IMG/VR virus record: IMGVR_UViG_2545824717_000014
Direction: 5' to 3' (one strand)
DNA from: a virus
Taxonomy: Duplodnaviria > Heunggongvirae > Uroviricota > Caudoviricetes
DNA: 15,997 bases
This document shows, in pieces, positions 3,050 through 15,129 of this stretch. Position 1 is the stretch's first letter. Every line of letters starts with the position of its first letter. The notes beneath the pieces were generated by a model. The model made no database searches. It was not told where the DNA came from and saw only the letters and a list, made by a program, of their open reading frames with translations. Position numbers and translations under genes: made by a program.

Positions 3050-3496
3050 ATGAACATCGAAAAAAGCAGATTAATTTCTGAGGCCGCCCCTCATCTGAAC
3101 GCCTCTCTGGGCACAATTAACGGTAATGAATTTGCCGCAATTGTCCCGGTTATTTCTGGTCATATAGGCGGGCGGGAAACCAATATTGTTAGCGCAAAAG
3201 CGTTACACAAAGCGTTGGGCGTGGGAAAAGACTTCTCTACATGGATCACTGATCGCATCTCTGAATATGACTTCACCATTGGGCACGATTACTCAGTCCA
3301 TAAAACAATTTCCCCAAATTTGGGGAAAAGCCCGAATGACGCGGCTTACAGCAAGATTAAGCAGTCTGGCAGACCCGGCAAAGACTATCTGTTAAGTGTC
3401 GGAATGGCGAAAGAACTGGCAATGATCGAACGCAATGATCAGGGTCGCGCTAACGATGCCCGTGCAGAGCTGGTAATTCTTGGTGGTGAAAAATGA
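3050..3496 (+). CDS. Phage antirepressor-like protein (AntA/Rha-type N-terminal domain), 148 aa
   Basis: The segment SAKALHKALGVGKDFSTWITDRISEYDFTIGHDY resembles the N-terminal domain of AntA/Rha/Bro-type phage regulatory proteins. GGAG-like RBS precedes the ATG. Confidence 0.5.
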   Translation: MNIEKSRLISEAAPHLNASLGTINGNEFAAIVPVISGHIGGRETNIVSAKALHKALGVGKDFSTWITDRISEYDFTIGHDYSVHKTISPNLGKSPNDAAYSKIKQSGRPGKDYLLSVGMAKELAMIERNDQGRANDARAELVILGGEK

Positions 3497-4581: not shown

Positions 4582-6933
4582 ATGCGAAACATTGATCTTA
4601 TCCGTCAGGTTATCAGTGCGTCTGAAAACAACTGGCCTCATGTGCTGGACTGCCTGAACATAAATGTCCCTGACTCTCCGCGCCGTCATGCTCCCTGCCC
4701 TGCATGTGGGGGCAAAGATCGATTCCGGTTCGATGACAACGGGCGCGGTAGCTTCATCTGTAATCAGTGCGGCGCTGGTGATGGGCTGGATTTAATTAAA
4801 CGCGTAAATAACTGCGACACAACAGAGGCGGCGCTTCTTGCCGCTGATGTTCTGGGTATTGATTACCGGACAACGGAAACACCAGAAGCCACCAGCCAGA
4901 AACGGGAACAACTGGAAACCGAGCGCCAGCGACGCGAACAGGAGCGCCTGAAAAGGGCAGAGAAGGACGAACAACAAAGACGGGATACGTTTTCCCGTCA
5001 GTTTGATGACATGCGCAGAAAGGCTGTAAACGGCAAATCTGATTATCTGGTTGCGAAAGGGGTAGGTGATTTTACATTCCCTGTGTTGCCCGATGGATCT
5101 CTGTTGCTGGCGCTGGTGGATAAATCCGGCGCAGTCACAGCAGCACAGACTATTACCTCACATGGTGAAAAAAGACTCCTGACAGGTTCAGCAAAGCGAG
5201 GGGCATATCACGCCATAAACGCACAGAAACGACCTCACAGCATCATAATTGCTGAGGGGGTGGCTACCGCCCTGTCGTGCCATTTAATTCGCCCTGACGC
5301 AATGACAGTGGCAGCAATCGACGCTGGCAACCTGTTGCCAGTAGCGGAAGTCATGCGCAGAACATATCCACAGGCACAAATCATCATTGCCGCAGATAAC
5401 GATCACCAGCAAGGAAACTCCGAAAGTGGAGGGATCAACACGGGGAAAGATGCCGCAGAGAGGGCCGCTATTTCCGTAGCTGGCTGGGTGTCTCTGCCAC
5501 CGACTGACTATAAAGCCGACTGGAACGACTATCACCAACAACACGGGCTGGCGGCAGCCACAGCAGCATTTAAAGATTCGATGTACCAGCCACGGGGGAA
5601 AGGGGCGCAGGTGAAAAATCACAAACAGTCAGTCGGGGCGCTGAATGAGATCAGTTCTGGCGAGGTGTTAAGCGATGATGAAATTGCTGTCCTCGAAGAA
5701 ATCAACCGGACGTTTACGCATGTCACCATCGGCGGGAAACACAAGGTGGTGTCGCTAAAGCCTTCTCAAACCGGCGGTGTATCGCACGTTTTCGAGGATT
5801 TATCACAATTTCAGCATTATTTTCATCATAAACCGAGAGTCGCCAGAAAGCTGGCGGGATCGGCGTGGCTGTCATGGAGTGGGAAGAACTACAAGCCAGG
5901 AGGCGTAGGATTTTATCCAGTACCAGACAAATGCCCTGACGATGTTTTTAATCTGTATGAGGGGCTGGCACTGGAACCAATTGAAGGAGATTGCACGGTA
6001 TACCTTAATCACCTGTTGCAGGTTGTCTGTGCCGGTAATGAAGAGGCATACCAATATCTTATCCAGTGGATGGCGCACATTATCCAAAAGCCTGATGAAA
6101 AACCGTCCGTGGCAATCGTGATGAAATCTGTCCCGGGCACAGGGAAAGGCACAACGGTTAAACCGCTGCTGCAAATACTGGGGCAGTACGCCGCCCACAT
6201 TAACGGGGCGGGACATATTTCAGGGCGCTTCAATTCAATACTTGCTAACAAGCTACTGGTATTTGCTGACGAAGTGACGATCCACAAGCCGTCTGAAGCT
6301 GACAGACTTAAAGCGATTATTAGCGAACCGACGTTTAACCTTGAGCGCAAGGGAATTGATGCTGAACCAATGCCGAATTTTGCCCGGTTGATATTTGCCA
6401 GTAACAGCACACAGGTATTACAGGCAGGGATAAGAGAGCGCCGCTATCTCGTGCTTGAGCCATCTCCTGAAAAAGCACAGAGCCGGGAGTATTTTGATCG
6501 GCTGTACAGTTGGCTTAATGATGGCGGTGCCGCAAAGTTGCTTTGGCATCTTAAAGGGGTGGATCTCTCAGGTTTTGACCCTCAACGAGCGCCACAGACC
6601 GATGCCTTACGTGAAGAAATCTTGCTGGGGCTGTCTGGCGTTGAATTGTTTCTTTATGGCGAGCTAATCAATGAACCTCCGTTTAATGGCGAAGTCCGTT
6701 TGTTTGCAAAGGATATGGTTAGTCGATTTGTAGCGTGGTCGCTTGAGCGTGGGGAAAAGCTTAAAGAACCAGCTGCCAGATCACTACTGGGTAAATCACT
6801 TGCACAAATGGGGCTGGTGAAGCATGGAAGACCAGACCGAGGGAATGGCGTGTTCTACGAACTACCAGAGGTCGGAGTTCTACAGGCTGCGTTTGCCCGT
6901 CTGATCGGTATGGGGGGTTATGATGTTTTTTAA
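4582..6933 (+). CDS. Primase-helicase, P4 alpha-like (zinc-ribbon + TOPRIM primase + P-loop NTPase), 783 aa
   Basis: N-terminal CPAC...CNQC zinc ribbon; TOPRIM motifs (IIIAEGVATA with the conserved Glu, IIIAADNDH DxD box); C-terminal P-loop-like VPGTGKGT and Walker B LLVFADEV. Size and architecture match satellite/plasmid primase-helicases (P4 alpha is of similar length). Confidence 0.9.
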   Translation: MRNIDLIRQVISASENNWPHVLDCLNINVPDSPRRHAPCPACGGKDRFRFDDNGRGSFICNQCGAGDGLDLIKRVNNCDTTEAALLAADVLGIDYRTTETPEATSQKREQLETERQRREQERLKRAEKDEQQRRDTFSRQFDDMRRKAVNGKSDYLVAKGVGDFTFPVLPDGSLLLALVDKSGAVTAAQTITSHGEKRLLTGSAKRGAYHAINAQKRPHSIIIAEGVATALSCHLIRPDAMTVAAIDAGNLLPVAEVMRRTYPQAQIIIAADNDHQQGNSESGGINTGKDAAERAAISVAGWVSLPPTDYKADWNDYHQQHGLAAATAAFKDSMYQPRGKGAQVKNHKQSVGALNEISSGEVLSDDEIAVLEEINRTFTHVTIGGKHKVVSLKPSQTGGVSHVFEDLSQFQHYFHHKPRVARKLAGSAWLSWSGKNYKPGGVGFYPVPDKCPDDVFNLYEGLALEPIEGDCTVYLNHLLQVVCAGNEEAYQYLIQWMAHIIQKPDEKPSVAIVMKSVPGTGKGTTVKPLLQILGQYAAHINGAGHISGRFNSILANKLLVFADEVTIHKPSEADRLKAIISEPTFNLERKGIDAEPMPNFARLIFASNSTQVLQAGIRERRYLVLEPSPEKAQSREYFDRLYSWLNDGGAAKLLWHLKGVDLSGFDPQRAPQTDALREEILLGLSGVELFLYGELINEPPFNGEVRLFAKDMVSRFVAWSLERGEKLKEPAARSLLGKSLAQMGLVKHGRPDRGNGVFYELPEVGVLQAAFARLIGMGGYDVF

Positions 6934-7109: not shown

Positions 7110-7340
7110 ATGATGAGCACACCATTTTACAAAGTGCGCCAGTTAGCTTCTTCCTCTGGCTGGCAGCTACGGTTTGAGGGGCGTTCAGACTGGCTACCCA
7201 TTGCGGCATGGGCGAATGTTGAAATGTGTATTGACGGCGATACCGTTGAAATCATTATTCCCTGCGTGGCAAGTCGGGACGGCTGTATAGAGCCAACAGA
7301 TATGGCAGCAGAAATCAGAGAGGTAAAACATGAACAATAA
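7110..7340 (+). CDS. Hypothetical protein, 76 aa
   Basis: ORF with a GAGG-like RBS, located between the two iteron clusters. Confidence 0.45.
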   Translation: MMSTPFYKVRQLASSSGWQLRFEGRSDWLPIAAWANVEMCIDGDTVEIIIPCVASRDGCIEPTDMAAEIREVKHEQ

Positions 7341-8067
7341 CTATTGCATACTGCAGGGAATGACCAGAACGGAGCGCGAAGAATTAAAAAGTTTCGCTAC
7401 ACAGTGCGGGAATGCTGGCGACATCCAAAGTCTGGAACGCACTTTAATTATGATTGCGCACTGGATGCGCCAGGGGCAAAGAGTTTCATTTACTGAATAT
7501 GCCAGCCAGTGGACAGAGGCACAGCGCGAACGGAGCGACGGTAATCACTCAACACCCGAAATGGCGAAGCAATGGCCTTTCAGTGGTAAACGCTGTATCA
7601 GTCCCGGTGGTTCAGATTATTACCCTGCTGGTGTGGGAGATGAGCCATGTTGTGACGAGACTGAAATCCGCCACGCAGTGACAGTAATTACCGCTGAATA
7701 CCCACAATTTAACCTTGACGGACTGGCGCTCCACAACCGGAATGCGGACTGGGAAAACCCGCTTGATAACCCGTCATTTATCGTATCGGCGAAAAGCTGC
7801 CTGAGATGGATCAGAGACAACGGGATGAGTAATGCCCAGATTGAGAGCTTCCCGCAGGATAACCCCACATCTGACACGTTGAAGCATGAAGTGGAGCGAT
7901 ATAACCAGATAAACCACCAGCACAGTGATCACCCGCACTATATCCCCAACGGAGCATTTATTGCGGCGATGGTGGCAAGCGGCTACAAGGTTAAGCCAGC
8001 GGGAAGAATGAACGCATTTTTCAATATTTCAAAAAAGGGATTATGTGCTGCTATGGGTAAAAATTAA
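7330..8067 (+). CDS. Hypothetical protein, 245 aa
   Basis: GAGGT RBS 7-8 nt upstream of the ATG; 11-nt overlap with the upstream gene; no motif recognised. Confidence 0.6.
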   Translation: MNNNYCILQGMTRTEREELKSFATQCGNAGDIQSLERTLIMIAHWMRQGQRVSFTEYASQWTEAQRERSDGNHSTPEMAKQWPFSGKRCISPGGSDYYPAGVGDEPCCDETEIRHAVTVITAEYPQFNLDGLALHNRNADWENPLDNPSFIVSAKSCLRWIRDNGMSNAQIESFPQDNPTSDTLKHEVERYNQINHQHSDHPHYIPNGAFIAAMVASGYKVKPAGRMNAFFNISKKGLCAAMGKN

Positions 8068-8073
8068 ATAAAT

Positions 8074-8176
8074 GGTACAGGTCTGTACAGGTGGGGAGAG
8101 GTCATTTTTACCCACCTGTACCACCTGCAGGCCGCGCCACACAAGGGTTTGTGACATGGTGGTACAGGTGGTACAG
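8074..8176. repeat. Iteron cluster 2: GGTACAGG/CCTGTACC copies at 8074-8081, 8085-8092, 8115-8122 (inverted), 8161-8168 and 8170-8176
   Basis: Same core octamer as cluster 1, in both orientations, ~1.1 kb downstream of cluster 1; resembles the paired ori/crr arrangement of P4-type replicons. Confidence 0.7.
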
Positions 8177-8670
8177 CAAAAACAGCGATTTTCTTTATAA
8201 GGTATGTTTTGCTCATCTGGCAGACGGAGGTATTCGCTGCGGTTTGGCACATAGCCCAGAACAGCAAAGAGTTTTACGAGACTTTTGTAAAATCCAGTGT
8301 ACAAGGGCGTGACGTTTTTGAAGGTGAGCACTACGAAATTTTCGTAGTTCAAAAAATAGCCTCTGAGATGTTGTTATGCCTGTTCAGCAAACCATCCGCA
8401 TAGCTGATCGCGAATCAAATTACCAATGGAGCCAGAAGCAAGGGCAGAACTGGAAAGCGCCTGCCGTGAAGAGTAATGCGACTCCATAAATATAGTTTTT
8501 AGAGTCCATAAAAAAACTGTCAAAACCTGACATACAGAACGATGCCACCAGCTACTGAACGGTGGCATTTTTTTGTGCTATTTGTTTCATATTTTGCAAT
8601 CACAATGATGAATGTTGCGTTTTATGAAACTATAATGACTGTTGTTTTATACAGTTCTAAGGGGGGCGTT

Positions 8671-8844
8671 ATGGCTATTTCAGTAAAGCCAGTATTGATA
8701 AGTGAGAAGCAAATGGAAGCGATAAAGAAAATTCAGGAGGAGCAGCGTAAAAAATCAGAGGTAGGAGTTGCGCCAACGATCCACGAAATTGCTCGGGGAT
8801 TAATGGATAAGGCGCTGGCTTACACTTTAACTGGACGTGGGTAA
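8671..8844 (+). CDS. Small protein, 57 aa, possible ribbon-helix-helix DNA-binding protein; first gene of the cargo operon
   Basis: Start chosen at ATG 8671, preceded by the G-rich RBS AAGGGGGG; a -10-like TATAAT lies ~40 bp upstream. The pattern ISVKPVLISEKQMEAIKKI ... IHEIARGLMDKAL is compatible with an RHH fold (weak, by eye). Stop is directly adjacent to the next gene. Confidence 0.45.
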   Translation: MAISVKPVLISEKQMEAIKKIQEEQRKKSEVGVAPTIHEIARGLMDKALAYTLTGRG

Positions 8845-8848
8845 ATTT

Positions 8849-10192
8849 ATGGCTACGTGGCAACAGGGTATTAATTCTGGTGGTTTTCTGGCTGGCATCG
8901 GTGCGCAAAATGAGAATGCGCCAAAGGCAAGCGACATTAACGCAACGCTTGGTCTGATCCGCGAAAACAATGAACTGGCTCCCTCAGGTGCAAATAACGT
9001 TGCTCTGACAGGTCTTCGTGGTCTGGCTGGAGTTGCTGACATTTATAAGCAGCAGCAACAGCAGGAACGTAAAGCGGCATTCCAGAAAGGTTATGCAGAT
9101 GCTTATGCGTCCGGTGACAGGGAGCAGATGCGTAATCTTATTACAGCATTCCCAGAAGAGTTTGAGGAAGTCCGTAAAGGGATGAGTTATGTCGATGATG
9201 CTCAAAGGGATGATTATGGCAATCTGGCGCTCAAAGCACAGGTAGCCTCATCGCTTGGTCAGGGCGCATTTGGCAGGTTCATGATGGATAATGAGCAGGA
9301 GATGCGTCGTTTAGGTATCCCTCCAGAAACTATTGCTGAAATGCAGGTTAATGACCCGCAGGGCTTCCAGCATTTCGCAGGTAATCTGGCGCTGTTTTCT
9401 CTCGGTCATGAGAAGTATTTCGATATCAAAGATCAAATGGAAGGTCGTCGACTTGAGCAAGGGCGACTGGATGAAAGTATGCGTCAGGCTGACATGGAGA
9501 ACGCGAGAGGATGGGCAAATATCCAGAACGCTCAACTAGACAGGGCTCAGCGAGCACAAATTCACTCAGATGAGATGGGATTGAAGCTAATGGAGCTGGG
9601 GCAAAAAGGTAAGCCGTCAGCAGACTTAATTAAGGGATTAAATTCTGACATTACCAATTTTGGCAAAAATTATAACTCTGTCAGAGCGGCGGCAAACTCT
9701 CTGCAAGCCCTTAGCAAGGTAAATACTGGCGCTGCCCAACTTGGGATTATCTTCAACTACATGAAATCTCTTGACCCGCAGTCAGTCGTTCGTGAAGGCG
9801 AACAGGTTCAGGTAATGCGGTCTGATGGCATATGGGGACAAATCAAAGGATACATAGACCAGCTTAATGCTGGAAACGGCCTGTCGCAGGAGGCAAAGGA
9901 TAACATTGTTAACGCCGCAAAAATCAACGCCAATGCTATGGGGCAGCAGTTTAACCAGCAGGTTGACGAGTATCTCGATACATATGGAGAAACTATTCCT
10001 CAGGGGCTAAGAAAAAGCCTTGAAAGAAGGAAAGCGAAGCTATTTGACGATGTTTCCGGGCAGCCTACATCACAGGCTGGCACTGGACAGGCAAAAGCGG
10101 CAACCGGAGGAATATCAGAAGGCGCAACGGCAACCAACCCTAAAACTGGTCAGAAAATCATTTACAGGAACGGAAAATGGCAGCAAATGTAA
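8849..10192 (+). CDS. Hypothetical protein, 447 aa, Q/A/N/G-rich and predicted largely helical; no recognisable catalytic motif (alternative GTG start at 8837)
   Basis: Long ORF whose 3' end overlaps the next gene by 16 nt. Contains a short poly-Gln run (KQQQQQERK) and many amphipathic-looking segments. Confidence 0.7.
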   Translation: MATWQQGINSGGFLAGIGAQNENAPKASDINATLGLIRENNELAPSGANNVALTGLRGLAGVADIYKQQQQQERKAAFQKGYADAYASGDREQMRNLITAFPEEFEEVRKGMSYVDDAQRDDYGNLALKAQVASSLGQGAFGRFMMDNEQEMRRLGIPPETIAEMQVNDPQGFQHFAGNLALFSLGHEKYFDIKDQMEGRRLEQGRLDESMRQADMENARGWANIQNAQLDRAQRAQIHSDEMGLKLMELGQKGKPSADLIKGLNSDITNFGKNYNSVRAAANSLQALSKVNTGAAQLGIIFNYMKSLDPQSVVREGEQVQVMRSDGIWGQIKGYIDQLNAGNGLSQEAKDNIVNAAKINANAMGQQFNQQVDEYLDTYGETIPQGLRKSLERRKAKLFDDVSGQPTSQAGTGQAKAATGGISEGATATNPKTGQKIIYRNGKWQQM

Positions 10193-12294
10193 TCTTACCG
10201 GAAGGTTTTGTGCTCGATGAACAACCTGATAACTCACAGTTTCCTGATAGTTCACAGCTTCCTGATGGTTTTGTGCTTGATGCCCAACCAGAACAGCAGC
10301 AATCACCTTTGGTTTCACCAGAGGAAAATTCCAGACAGGAAAATGTTGTTAATAATGCTAACGGTTTCGACCGTTTTATGTATGGCGTTCTCAGTGGATT
10401 GATGGATGTTGGTAAAGGTGTTGGCCTGTTTCAGGATATGACACCAGAAGAGCAAGCCGCAATTCAGTCTCTACAGCAGAAGTTAGCGGCAAAACCATCA
10501 ACCGCACAAGATGTTGGTGAGTTCGTTGGACAAGCAGCGCCATTTGTTAGTGGTGGTGGGATTATTTCTCAGGTTCCCAAAGGGGCGGCAAGACTGGCTG
10601 CCGCCGCAGGGCTTGGTGCTGGAGAAGGGGCTATTGTAGCCAATGGAACAAATAGCGATGTTGCTTCCGGCGCTGCTATTGGCGCTGTGGCTGGCCCTGT
10701 AGCCGAACTTGCTGGCCCTGCAATTAATAAAATAGCTGGGAAATTAACCAAGAAGAATGTTTCTTCGATTCCAGATATTGAGGGGATTACTCCTGCCGAA
10801 GAGAAAATTCGTAAGTTATCTGCACAAGGCAACCCAAATCTTGCCTCTTCGCTTGAAGGGCTAGATCTAAAACCTCAGAAAGAAATTGTTGAGGCTGCAA
10901 ATAGGCTTCATGTTGATTCAGTTCTTCCTTCTCATTTATCAGGAAATGAGCAATACCAAGCTGTAGAGCAAGCCCTAAAGTCACGGACAGGATCAGCGTT
11001 AAAAGCTCAAGAAGATAAAGCAATAAGCGAATTAGCCTCTAGTGCTGGCAAGATAATCGATGATGTTGCTGGTGCGCCAGATGCGTTAGCTATGAGCGAA
11101 AAATATATTTATCAGATAAATAGTAGAATGGAAGCACTAAAAAACCGTAGTGATCAGTTATATAAACGTGTTGATTCCGCTCTATCACCAAGAACAAAAG
11201 TCGAAGCAAATAACACAAGCACTATGCTGGAAAAAATCGCTGATGATTTAGGAGGGTGGGATAATCTTGACCCAATAGAAAAGCGAGTTTTTACAGCAAT
11301 AAACCCCGGCCCAGATAGCATCCTAACGTATGCAAATTTAAACAGGCAAAGGCGTTTAGTTGGTGATGCCCTAAATAAAAAGCAGGGGCCATACAAAGAT
11401 GCTGATAAAGAAGCGCTATCAAGACTATATGGAGCTTTAGCTGAAGACCAAAAATCTGTCTTATCCAATACTGGATACTTGCGAGATTTCGAAGTCGCAC
11501 AACGCCTTGTAGCTATGAGAAAAAACTTAGAAAGGCAAATGGTAAATCTTCGCGGGAAAACACTTAATGGGGATATAGCGTATAAAGTAACGAATTCTCT
11601 TCAATCTATGGCAAAAGGTGATGCGAGAGGGTTTCGTGAGATTATGCAAAATACTCCATCAAGAACATTGCGAAGGGAGCTAGTAGGAACAGCATTAAGA
11701 GATATGCTTTCCTCTGGGAAGCGTGGGGCCGACTTTAATCCATCTGGCTTCGCAGATTGGTGGCAAAACTTGCAACACAGTGGACAGCTAAAGACTTTGG
11801 CTGAACATTTGCCAAAAGAAACAATGAGCGGACTATATGATGTATACAAAGTTGCCAGAGCAATAAAAAATGCTAAAGCGCATGAAATATCTACTGGTAA
11901 GCTGAATGAGTTTGTAAACAGATTTAATCGGGTAACAGCTCCATACGAACTAGCAGCAAAACACATTCAAAAAATAGGCACGATGGTAGGCGCTCATTTT
12001 GGATCGCTTGGAGCCATTGCTGGGGCTGATATTGGAGCAAGATTGGCGAGTAAAGCTCGATTAGCTGGTGGAGCAGGGGCGGCTGATGCTGCGGATAAAT
12101 TAATTGCCTCGCCAGCCTTCCAGAGCGCAGTAAAAAATCTACACGGAAAAGCGCCTGGGCACATTGTTGATTCACGTATCAGGCGCTCCCCTCAATGGAA
12201 GAGTTTTTTTAACTCTCTTCCTGAACAGGAAAAACGGACCATCGCCAGACTGGGCATCATTACTTGGCTATCTAATGATCCAGATAATGACTAG
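10177..12294 (+). CDS. Hypothetical protein, 705 aa, with N-terminal tandem repeat (PEGFVLDEQP / PDGFVLDAQP) and Gly/Ala-rich hydrophobic segments near both ends
   Basis: ATG with AGGA RBS ~9 nt upstream; start overlaps the stop of the 447-aa gene. G/A-rich stretches (AAAAGLGAGEGAIVANG...AIGAVAGPVAELAGPAI; IGTMVGAHFGSLGAIAGADIGARL...AGGAGAA). No P-loop, nuclease or protease motif identified by eye. Confidence 0.75.
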   Translation: MAANVILPEGFVLDEQPDNSQFPDSSQLPDGFVLDAQPEQQQSPLVSPEENSRQENVVNNANGFDRFMYGVLSGLMDVGKGVGLFQDMTPEEQAAIQSLQQKLAAKPSTAQDVGEFVGQAAPFVSGGGIISQVPKGAARLAAAAGLGAGEGAIVANGTNSDVASGAAIGAVAGPVAELAGPAINKIAGKLTKKNVSSIPDIEGITPAEEKIRKLSAQGNPNLASSLEGLDLKPQKEIVEAANRLHVDSVLPSHLSGNEQYQAVEQALKSRTGSALKAQEDKAISELASSAGKIIDDVAGAPDALAMSEKYIYQINSRMEALKNRSDQLYKRVDSALSPRTKVEANNTSTMLEKIADDLGGWDNLDPIEKRVFTAINPGPDSILTYANLNRQRRLVGDALNKKQGPYKDADKEALSRLYGALAEDQKSVLSNTGYLRDFEVAQRLVAMRKNLERQMVNLRGKTLNGDIAYKVTNSLQSMAKGDARGFREIMQNTPSRTLRRELVGTALRDMLSSGKRGADFNPSGFADWWQNLQHSGQLKTLAEHLPKETMSGLYDVYKVARAIKNAKAHEISTGKLNEFVNRFNRVTAPYELAAKHIQKIGTMVGAHFGSLGAIAGADIGARLASKARLAGGAGAADAADKLIASPAFQSAVKNLHGKAPGHIVDSRIRRSPQWKSFFNSLPEQEKRTIARLGIITWLSNDPDND

Positions 12295-12313
12295 TGAATG
12301 GCCACGGATGGCC

Positions 12314-12739
12314 TCAATCTTTATTCTTTGAAATAGAGTCATTGATCTTTTCGAAACACCAATGAAATCCACAAAAGAGAGCTACACCAATATAACAATA
12401 CAAAACTATCAACCACCTTTCAGTGTCCGAAGGGTAAAAAACATCAATTACATAAGCAACACCAATTGGTATTAATGCTAGTAATAACATCGACACAGGA
12501 CGTACAAACTTCTGAACTATATCAATTTTATAGAACCACAAGGCGGTATGTTTAATGATATAAGTAAAGATGGCTGCGCCAATAATGGCAAAAAACACCA
12601 TCGATAAAGTCGGGTATAACTTTGCGACAATTAAACCCAACAAAATAATTATAACTGCCTGCCCCCTCACACCAACCCTCCCTTTAGCTTTGTTTAGAAT
12701 GGCAATCATCATATATCCAAGACATGGCATTTGGTACAT
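12314..12739 (-). CDS. Small integral membrane protein, up to 141 aa, about 4 predicted TM helices; convergent on the 705-aa gene
   Basis: Four hydrophobic ~20-residue segments (AVIIILLGLIVAKLY, SMVFFAIIGAAIFTYII, SMLLLALIPIGVAYVIDVF, WLIVLYCYIGVALFCGF). Its stop lies 19 bp from the stop of the 705-aa gene on the other strand. Start codon uncertain (several in-frame ATGs, no strong RBS). Confidence 0.6.
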   Translation of the reverse strand: MYQMPCLGYMMIAILNKAKGRVGVRGQAVIIILLGLIVAKLYPTLSMVFFAIIGAAIFTYIIKHTALWFYKIDIVQKFVRPVSMLLLALIPIGVAYVIDVFYPSDTERWLIVLYCYIGVALFCGFHWCFEKINDSISKNKD

Positions 12740-13473: not shown

Positions 13474-13929
13474 TTATACGCTGACCTTACAATCAATCAC
13501 CGCTTTTAACTTTTCAGCATTGCTTCCCTGACGCTTCCACGCGCTGTAAATATCTTTATCCCACGCTTTACCAGCTTTTGTTTGATAGCCTGCTTCATTG
13601 ATCCGTTCAGCTATCACACGCCCATTATCAAATCCCTGTCGGATGGTATCGGCAATGATCTTTATAACTGCCGTTTCGTTATATGGCTTTGGTGGGATGT
13701 TCGGCTTTCCGGCAATAAGCGACGCAGCGGCTTTTTCCATGCGCTCCACCAGCCCAAGCATTCGTGAATCAATAGACTTTTCCGGCTGTCCCAGCTTCAT
13801 GCGAATCGCATCAACAAGCCAGGAGGTTTTATCCCCTCCAGAAGCGAGAACAGACCGATTAAACTCATCCTGCAATTCAGATGGGATGCGGAACGCGACC
13901 AGATTAGATTTGCTCATTGCAAAGACCAT
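13474..13929 (-). CDS. Putative ribbon-helix-helix DNA-binding regulator, 151 aa (alternative start at 13917); no RBS, possibly leaderless
   Basis: N-terminal LVAFRIPSELQDEFNRSV...TSWLVDAIRMKL fits a beta-strand/helix/helix RHH (Arc/CopG-like) pattern. Divergent from the PerC-like gene across a palindrome/iteron-rich region. Confidence 0.55.
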   Translation of the reverse strand: MVFAMSKSNLVAFRIPSELQDEFNRSVLASGGDKTSWLVDAIRMKLGQPEKSIDSRMLGLVERMEKAAASLIAGKPNIPPKPYNETAVIKIIADTIRQGFDNGRVIAERINEAGYQTKAGKAWDKDIYSAWKRQGSNAEKLKAVIDCKVSV

Positions 13930-14188: not shown

Positions 14189-14476
14189 ATGATAAGGGAC
14201 AGGAAAGCTGAAGAGCTGGAGTCAAAAGGGCTATACCGGAGAGCTGCCGCACGATGGGCAGAAGTCATGATGCTGGCAGATGGCGATAAAGAACGTGAAC
14301 ATGCAGCAAACAGACGCTCTGAATGTATCCGTAAGGCGGCACGCCAACCAGCAACTACAGACAGATTCGGAGATTTAAGACAGGCAGTTAAGCGGACTCA
14401 TTCGGCTCTTGGTATGGATGAGGAAGCGAGAGGGTACTTCAGGCGTTATCGCGATAAAGATTGCCAGAGACAGTAA
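14189..14476 (+). CDS. PerC-family transcriptional activator-like protein, 95 aa
   Basis: N-terminal KAEELESKGLYRRAAARWAEVM matches the conserved PerC/Pch-type signature as I recall it; GAGAGG RBS upstream. Confidence 0.65.
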   Translation: MIRDRKAEELESKGLYRRAAARWAEVMMLADGDKEREHAANRRSECIRKAARQPATTDRFGDLRQAVKRTHSALGMDEEARGYFRRYRDKDCQRQ

Positions 14477-14778: not shown

Positions 14779-14987
14779 ACAACAAGCCTGAACATGGTTA
14801 CACACCTCGAGCCTGAGGGATGTAGGCAATGGCTTCTGACCAAAGCACCCGAAAAAACCGTGTACATAAGGGTGTACATAATCAAAAATCGCATTAGAAA
14901 GAAACCAGCCACAATGCGGCATTGAAGCCAACACTCTACAAACAGATTCAGACTCGTAACACTAATTCTTACTTTTCAGCCTTCACA

Positions 14988-15109: not shown

Positions 15110-15129
15110 AACTGTATATAAATACAGTT
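15110..15129. promoter_or_regulatory. LexA (SOS) box AACTGTATATAAATACAGTT overlapping the dinD promoter
   Basis: Perfect CTGT-N8-ACAG palindrome with an AT-rich centre, ~45 bp upstream of the dinD start; matches the LexA consensus. Confidence 0.85.

Follow-up and report, generated by a model that had tools for sequence, protein, structure and literature searches.

A P22-type ejection-gene pair in a swappable cassette slot of a phage-inducible chromosomal island from Escherichia coli

The virus record IMGVR_UViG_2545824717_000014 from IMG/VR (Caudoviricetes) is 15,997 nucleotides long; that whole stretch is here called the window. At positions 8671–12739 it holds a four-gene module that an earlier note, made from the letters alone, had taken for unassignable cargo: a small gene, two large proteins of 447 and 705 residues without recognisable motifs, and a convergent gene for a protein with four transmembrane (4-TM) segments. 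Homology searches and genome comparison give the large proteins an identity. Judged by sequence, both are intact and full length, one a member of the gp20 family and the other probably of the gp16 family, the DNA-ejection proteins of P22-type phages. They lie in what the gene content identifies as a phage-inducible chromosomal island (PICI) resembling EcCIMP1, at a position where related islands carry other genome-delivery genes. The module comprises:

8671–8844, + strand: small57, an open reading frame (ORF) of 57 codons; a PICI-specific leader gene, possibly for a small DNA-binding regulator.
8849–10192, + strand: gp20 homologue of 447 residues ("injectosome translocase", an ejection protein), assigned by PF16928 and phrog_917.
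10177–12294, + strand: homologue of gene-16-type DNA-transfer (ejection) proteins, 705 residues, assigned by phrog_6704, phrog_770 and synteny.
12314–12739, − strand: convergent 4-TM inner-membrane protein, predicted from hydropathy; 141 residues, or 131 from the RefSeq start at 12709.

All four ORFs were recovered where the earlier note had placed them, with the same overlaps and the same tail-to-tail gap. They are real genes and not chance ORFs: at least 1000 public contigs carry an exact copy of the 705-residue sequence, at least 1000 carry one of the 131-residue sequence, and RefSeq annotates both. As had been proposed, the genes on the + strand make up a tight three-gene operon: the 447-codon gene starts 4 nucleotides past the small57 stop and then overlaps the 705-codon gene by 16 nucleotides, exactly the overlap between genes 057 and 058 of phage Kapi1. 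A weak hairpin lies in the 19-bp gap between the 705-codon gene and the 4-TM gene. Scans of the module against Rfam and NCBIfam returned nothing relevant.

The case for gp20 is simple. The 447-residue protein scores 243 bits with Pfam PF16928 (Inj_translocase, P22 gp20), where the cutoff is 29.7 (E = 3.8e-72; the match spans 1–208 of the 218 profile positions), and matches phrog_917 with E = 4e-131; its RefSeq label is "phage DNA ejection protein". Identity to Kapi1_057 is 74%, and the first 212 residues are 96% identical to those of the W170 island. The protein is a mosaic: its C-terminal half is of the Kapi1 type, its N-terminal domain of another.

For the 705-residue protein the match to phrog_6704 is full-length (E = 1.4e-174), and phrog_770, "DNA transfer protein", is hit with E = 1.2e-50. 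Along its whole length it shares 41–44% identity with the proteins that occupy the gene-16 position in Kapi1 (Kapi1_058, 41%), E212, and EC.P3; its C-terminal 71% is 63% identical to the corresponding protein of Sf101. By PHROG and synteny it probably belongs among the gene-16-type DNA-transfer proteins. Part of the module is ~90% identical in nucleotide sequence to Kapi1 genes 057 and 058, and the order 20, 16, convergent envelope gene is common to the complete P22-like phages Kapi1, Sf101, and P22 and to prophage HS1. An undescribed system without homology, as the earlier note had envisaged, is therefore not what the module holds: its large proteins are homologous to virion proteins that have matching neighbours in complete P22-like phages, and the Pfam and PHROG matches are very strong.

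The earlier note had read the composition correctly. Both large proteins are rich in Ala, Gly, and Gln (32% of the 447-residue protein), and hydropathy picks out Gly/Ala-rich hydrophobic stretches at residues 137–180 of the 705-residue protein. Its surmise of a membrane-interacting or structural character suits relatives of ejection proteins. In P22, gp20 and gp16 are packed in the capsid, expelled on adsorption, and form a conduit for DNA across the cell envelope. One lesson follows: where large, low-complexity proteins lack motifs and have a small membrane gene for a neighbour, they can be nothing more unusual than ejection proteins of a virion.

The host of these genes is a satellite. The window is 100% identical to chromosomes of enterotoxigenic E. 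coli (ETEC), TW10598, B2C, and O6:H16 among them, where it fills the yicC–dinD intergenic region. The island, of ~15 kb, encodes a tyrosine integrase, AlpA (26.4 bits against 21), a truncated AntA, a Toprim/DUF5906 primase, and a PerC-like protein. The two ejection genes are its only virion-type genes; Pfam and PHROG revealed no capsid, terminase, or lysis genes. The earlier idea of a satellite-type island is thus borne out, both by this PICI gene set and by a backbone that is 85–100% identical to EcCIMP1 across six proteins: orf143, 99%; AntA, 97%; orf73, 100%; orf200, 89%; the N-terminal half of the primase, 85%; and small57, 92%. The PerC-like proteins are 53% identical.

The PICI EcCIMP1 comes from E. 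coli MP1 (Pick, Stadel and Raivio, ISME J 2025, PMC11773190). It excises when the P22-like phage Kapi1 is induced, and Kapi1 transduces it, under control of AlpA. It also adds to superinfection immunity against Kapi1, an effect that no known defence system explains. Its authors considered phage-like structural genes absent, and viewed the cassette ORFs as possible packaging factors (PMC11773190). Contrary to that statement, EcCIMP1 carries a complete gp14-gp7-gp20-gp16 set.

Both islands, then, fill the slot after small57 with P22-type ejection genes, and both have a promoter with a LexA box. They differ in integrase and attachment site (yicC/dinD in the window; tRNA-Thr for EcCIMP1), in the C-terminal domain of the primase (DUF5906 versus DUF927), and in the cassette itself. 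That of EcCIMP1 encodes gp14, gp7, gp20, gp16 (which there includes a transglycosylase domain), and a lipoprotein, and lacks the 4-TM gene of the window. The window cassette has only gp20 and gp16, both of another allele type, with a gp20 just 25% identical to that of EcCIMP1, plus the convergent 4-TM gene.

The slot is best followed through small57. Of 5426 complete E. coli genomes, 501 have this gene with its upstream region, and homologues are found in at least seven enterobacterial genera, including Serratia, Leclercia, Klebsiella, Raoultella, Erwinia, and Salmonella. In all contexts examined the PICI backbone (integrase, AlpA, AntA, Ash, primase) precedes it, and there is no homologue among 50,697 phage records; small57 is a PICI-specific marker. 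The AlphaFold2 (AF2) model (predicted local distance difference test, pLDDT, 76) has an extended N-terminus followed by two helices. Such a pattern would be compatible with the monomer of a ribbon-helix-helix protein, as the earlier note had supposed, but searches of Pfam (with 14 homologues), of PDB sequences, and with Foldseek gave no match for it, and PADLOC-DB gave only a chance-level match to Cas11a (E = 0.017, 13.5 bits).

In a census of 60 IMG/VR loci, small57 is followed by virion genome-delivery or tail-tip genes at 58 of the 59 that were informative. These comprise 14 P22-type, 11 internal-virion-protein, 24 tape-measure, and 8 hub cassettes (the hub class being PHROG-confirmed on representatives only), along with one Dit-like cassette. 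P22-type cassettes, either gp20 and gp16 or gp14, gp7, gp20, and gp16, are present in E. coli, Leclercia, and Serratia. In another Leclercia island (L007) the slot holds four internal virion proteins from a podophage lineage resembling Ab31, and the cassettes of Klebsiella, Raoultella, and Erwinia encode full-length tape-measure proteins together with Dit-like and baseplate-hub proteins. The earlier note had asked whether known defence systems take turns at this position; the contents do swap, and what swaps in is nearly always a delivery or tail-tip gene.

On the left, the junction of the cassette falls within the last codons of small57. On the right, it follows a leader of ~14 codons (MIAILNKAKGRVGV) with which the convergent gene begins and which belongs to the conserved island backbone. 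Past MIAILNKAKGRVGV the rest of that gene varies: it encodes the 4-TM protein, a different 4-TM protein, or a secreted phrog_2651 protein. In the E. coli islands compared, small57 and this leader flank the swap-slot. No P22-type cassette has gp20 without gp16 or the reverse; gp14 and gp7 may be present or absent. (Islands of the Klebsiella and Raoultella type often have, behind the delivery cassette, a gene for a protein of ~170–200 residues, as at 12142–12648 of L016 and in many IMG/VR loci, L042, L045, and L058 among them. Its N-terminus weakly resembles a terminase small subunit or helix-turn-helix protein, by phrog_57 at E = 4.5e-9, and it could be a packaging specificity factor; the window has no counterpart.)

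Five elements lie upstream of the module:

8073–8176, no strand assigned: iteron cluster in which GGTACAGGTGG recurs five to six times, in direct and inverted orientation (repeat families D3, D4, I1, I2, I5, I7).
8541–8575, + strand: intrinsic terminator from a terminator scan, with a 9-bp G+C-rich stem (8541–8569) and a U-run to ~8575.
8584–8630, no strand assigned: putative palindromic operator, GTTTCATA-TTGCAAT...ATTGCG-TTTATGAAAC (inverted repeat I14), at the −35 position.
8631–8636, + strand: −10 hexamer TATAAT, invariant in 10 of 10 aligned islands, without a good −35 element.
8639–8654, no strand assigned: predicted LexA (SOS) box, CTGT-N8-ACAG, overlapping the predicted transcription start.

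The earlier note had set the module directly downstream of the replication genes. It does lie downstream of that region, but does not adjoin the primase gene: two small ORFs (7110–8067), the iteron cluster, the terminator, and the promoter region intervene. From its position just after the primase region, the iteron cluster is probably the island replication origin. The predicted terminator (RNA fold of −13.8 kcal/mol, z = −2.96) separates upstream transcription from the module, and related islands of other genera have equivalent hairpins with T-runs. In 10 islands from six genera the blocks TTTCAT, TGCAAT, ATTGCA, and ATGAAAC of the palindrome vary little or not at all.

Control by LexA is probable. 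The pattern CTGT-N8-ACAG has two matches in the window, against 0.13 expected by chance: the module box and the SOS box of dinD. The latter (AACTGTATATAAATACAGTT, 15110–15129, with the pattern at 15112–15127) lies just to the right of the island and provides a positive control. A position weight matrix, a rough one built from SOS boxes in the literature, gives the module box 17.4, the dinD box 26.0, and the training boxes 13.1–26.5. The spacing CTG-N10-CAG is kept in islands of E. coli, Leclercia (L006), Serratia (L018), and Erwinia. An origin of the upstream region in a phage late promoter or Q antiterminator was also sought. No phage carries small57, so the module promoter appears to be PICI-specific.

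Two further observations concern SOS sites and their neighbours. The third-best site of the same matrix, TACTGTATGGGCAACCACTA at 2324–2343, scores 12.8, just under the weakest training box, and is ~45 bp upstream of alpA, the gene for the PICI master regulator. DinD itself matches the PADLOC candidate system PDC-S13.

These features suggest a model, to which we give even weight for and against, in which an SOS-induced satellite operon loads its own matched gp20/gp16 pair into hijacked helper capsids, and the island DNA is injected through the satellite's conduit. DNA damage would remove LexA while inducing a P22-like helper prophage. The matched pair would then be made early and built into helper procapsids, so that particles with island DNA inject through the satellite's conduit instead of the helper's. 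Presumably gp7 and gp14, which are interchangeable between phages, would be left to the helper. A possible benefit is entry into cells that have SieA-type injection blocks or different inner-membrane requirements.

The model draws on work with P22, in which gp16 and gp20 must be cognate but gp7 is exchangeable, and in which foreign matched gp16/gp20 pairs assemble into virions and function (PMC10883804). This requirement would explain why gp20 and gp16 always travel together in the islands while gp14 and gp7 are optional. EcCIMP1 and its helper Kapi1 follow the same division, in this single MP1/Kapi1 pair: identity is 26% for gp20 and 24% for gp16, versus 83% for gp14. The model is also favoured by the way in which the same slot tracks very different helper types. 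Some form of interaction with a helper phage remains likely.

A wider claim is more tentative, and on balance we doubt it: that a PICI lineage of the Enterobacterales keeps a conserved swap-slot, LexA-controlled in most genera and at all times occupied by whichever genome-delivery device the current type of helper uses, be it P22 ejection proteins, podophage internal virion proteins, or siphophage tape-measure, Dit, or hub proteins. Satellites would in this way re-equip hijacked capsids and tails with their own envelope-penetration parts, setting entry specificity and evading the injection blocks of prophages. No account of piracy of this kind turned up in the literature searched.

Several points weigh against the loading model. 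The steps from expression through incorporation to benefit, the entry of PICI-encoded ejection proteins into virions among them, are all ones that we infer. The helper already supplies ejection proteins, which makes any benefit conjectural. The 705-residue protein has no match to Pfam Phage_P22_gp16 at E ≤ 0.1, and none to P22 gp16 by direct BLASTP; the 4-TM protein resembles no SieA type. The LexA-box spacing is wrong in the islands of Raoultella, Klebsiella, and S. silvae. There are signs of decay: 3 of the 14 P22-type IMG/VR cassettes have split genes, and the same cassette in ETEC H10407 (L012 11290–12633, at the tRNA-Thr/pao site) has a premature stop, Q331*, in its gp20 homologue. (IMG/VR locus L027 has the identical truncation.) The island in the window, with its truncated antA and without ash and icd, may no longer be fully mobile. 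Finally, EcCIMP1 is transduced at just ~5e3 per ml, and only 2 of 21 EcCIMP1 strains have a Kapi1-like prophage (PMC11773190).

The alternative that survives best, unlikely as we consider it, reverses the benefit. Here the island pair would poison virions: co-assembled with the helper's non-cognate pair, it would yield mixed conduits that fail, and the resulting non-infectious progeny would protect the population. When gp16 and gp20 are not cognate, P22 virions take up the foreign protein but do not function (PMC10883804), and the island alleles are very divergent from those of the helper. Interference with helper assembly is common among PICIs, and the stretch beside pri is known as a hotspot of PICI immunity (Tai, PMC11364771). 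However, EcCIMP1 left Kapi1 titres after induction, and infection of non-lysogens, unaffected (PMC11773190). Poisoned conduits would disable the island's own particles too, and intact full-length proteins, with complete four-gene sets in many islands, resemble working parts rather than decoys.

The convergent gene suggests another function for the module. The earlier note was right to treat it as a meaningful neighbour, because P22 has sieA in exactly this position: 22 bp separate 16 and sieA in P22, versus 19 bp here, and prophage HS1 shares the order. Envelope proteins of several kinds (4-TM, secreted, lipoprotein) occupy the slot after gene 16 in islands and phages. The protein is predicted from hydropathy to have four hydrophobic transmembrane helices, as does its AF2 model, of low confidence (pLDDT 59.5). 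It is a near-orphan restricted to E. coli: an exhaustive HMMER search of 1.84 billion representative proteins found only seven relatives, and no phage homologue was matched. Homology to SieA was considered and rejected, since BLASTP detects no similarity to the P22 or HS1 proteins, which match each other at 1e-24, and the motif FxRYPxEAxxFNK is absent. A Bax1-I or "FtsH-binding" label was also set aside; its 23.8 bits fall below the cutoff of 34.1, and the match is probably compositional. From its position, the protein is most simply a constitutively expressed envelope "moron", possibly an injection-exclusion factor, that is swapped along with the cassette.

If so, the module might be a superinfection-exclusion unit, in which the envelope protein blocks P22-like injection as SieA does. 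The ejection genes would have come along in one piece from a phage 20-16-sieA region, and may provide a conduit insensitive to the block. SieA indeed acts on gp16 and gp20 (PMC10883804), and EcCIMP1, as noted above, adds to immunity against Kapi1 with no known defence system. Yet EcCIMP1, the island with the phenotype, does not have the 4-TM gene. Nor does this explanation account for the tape-measure, hub, and internal-virion-protein cassettes elsewhere. With the dissimilarity to both SieA types A and B and the near-orphan status added, it seems improbable, and we rank it below virion poisoning.

It is more improbable again that the cassettes are non-functional hitch-hiking DNA, fragments gained by recombination with helper phages and drifting to loss. 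The mosaic junctions, the ~90% nucleotide identity to Kapi1 over part of the module, and the pseudogenes in some strains would all fit. Synonymous and non-synonymous counts among near-identical island alleles involve too few differences to infer selection, and within-allele variation is thus too small to show purifying selection. But independent acquisitions from at least five unrelated phage types have entered the same slot, and all bring genome-delivery or tail-tip genes, at 58 of the 59 loci. The cassettes also lie under a promoter conserved across genera, and most copies are full length.

Least credible by far is an SOS-induced toxin with a membrane immunity protein. In pore-forming colicin operons a convergent small multi-TM gene lies downstream, and the module, with its LexA box just past the −10 element, shares that arrangement; gp16-type proteins, furthermore, are membrane-associated (PMC10883804). 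Yet the large proteins are orthologous to virion components and have no colicin, receptor-binding, translocation, or lysis domains, and sister islands lack the membrane gene or have a secreted protein instead. No toxin or immunity signatures were found to sustain the effector/immunity pair that the earlier note had imagined, and, as to its suggestion of anti-phage defence, PADLOC assigned no family to either large protein or to the membrane protein.

Other features of the island deserve brief mention. The antA gene (3050–3496) encodes 148 residues rather than ~277, and the 14 codons at its end align to sequence that, in sister islands, lies just upstream of orf87. The truncation therefore implies the loss of ~1.8 kb, including the DUF4222, ash, and icd-like genes, and mobilisation may be impaired. 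The primase gene (4582–6933) is a mosaic: the first ~351 residues are those 85% identical to the EcCIMP1 primase, whereas the C-terminal half is DUF5906, in place of the DUF927 of most sister islands. The PerC-family protein (14189–14476) is the relative, at 53% identity, of EcCIMP1_025, which is reported to repress rather than activate the pathogenicity island LEE (locus of enterocyte effacement) (PMC11773190); it may matter since the host belongs to an ETEC lineage.

A 12-bp direct repeat, GGTGTACATAAT, flanks the island, at 14871–14882 on the right and at 5932–5943 of L001, just outside the window, on the left. The left copy sits amid several TGTACA motifs. The repeat is a candidate att core, which would put the right end of the island near 14882. 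At 13474–13929 on the − strand, in the position of P22 mnt, a gene for a 151-residue protein has an N-terminus (NLVAFRIPSELQDEFNR...KTSWLVDAIRMKL) that resembles a ribbon-helix-helix motif; it is kept in sister islands and absent from EcCIMP1.

How does the module compare with known systems? Besides EcCIMP1, a close one is the 20-16-sieA region of P22 and other Lederbergviruses (Leavitt et al., mBio 2024, PMC10883804), with which it shares homologous gp20 and gp16-type proteins, gene order, overlap, and a convergent small inner-membrane gene ~20 bp past gene 16. The P22 genes belong to a phage late operon, whereas the window genes stand behind their own LexA-box promoter in a satellite without capsid, portal, terminase, tail, or lysis genes, without gp7 and gp14, and with a membrane protein unrelated in sequence to SieA. 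Tai (tail assembly inhibition, PMC11364771) likewise occupies the PICI region downstream of the primase and concerns helper tail or entry components. Unlike the window cassette, which is negative in PADLOC, Tai is a small defence protein and no virion-protein homologue.

A published PICI family already has this feature, and the module is a new allelic form of it. The literature searched, most subscription journals being outside its reach, describes no ejection or tape-measure cassettes encoded by satellites; nor does it mention the logic of the cassette slot, the promoter with its LexA box, or how broad the cargo is.

Satellites are known that take over capsids, that alter capsid size, or that form heads of their own and take over tails. 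Some, including SaPIbov5 with its Ccm protein and the capsid-forming PICIs, carry copies of helper virion genes and rebuild hijacked particles to their own advantage. Those systems remodel capsids or supply heads; the window borrows genome-delivery proteins. The island is common, present in ~9% of complete E. coli genomes, and experimentally tractable, with the reference ETEC strains H10407 and TW10598 among its hosts. If the loading model is true, a satellite-supplied DNA-injection conduit would be a new layer of phage–satellite conflict. It would provide a concrete candidate for the unexplained phenotypes of EcCIMP1, and would tie a third player to the speed with which P22-type ejection proteins and SieA-type exclusion diversify.

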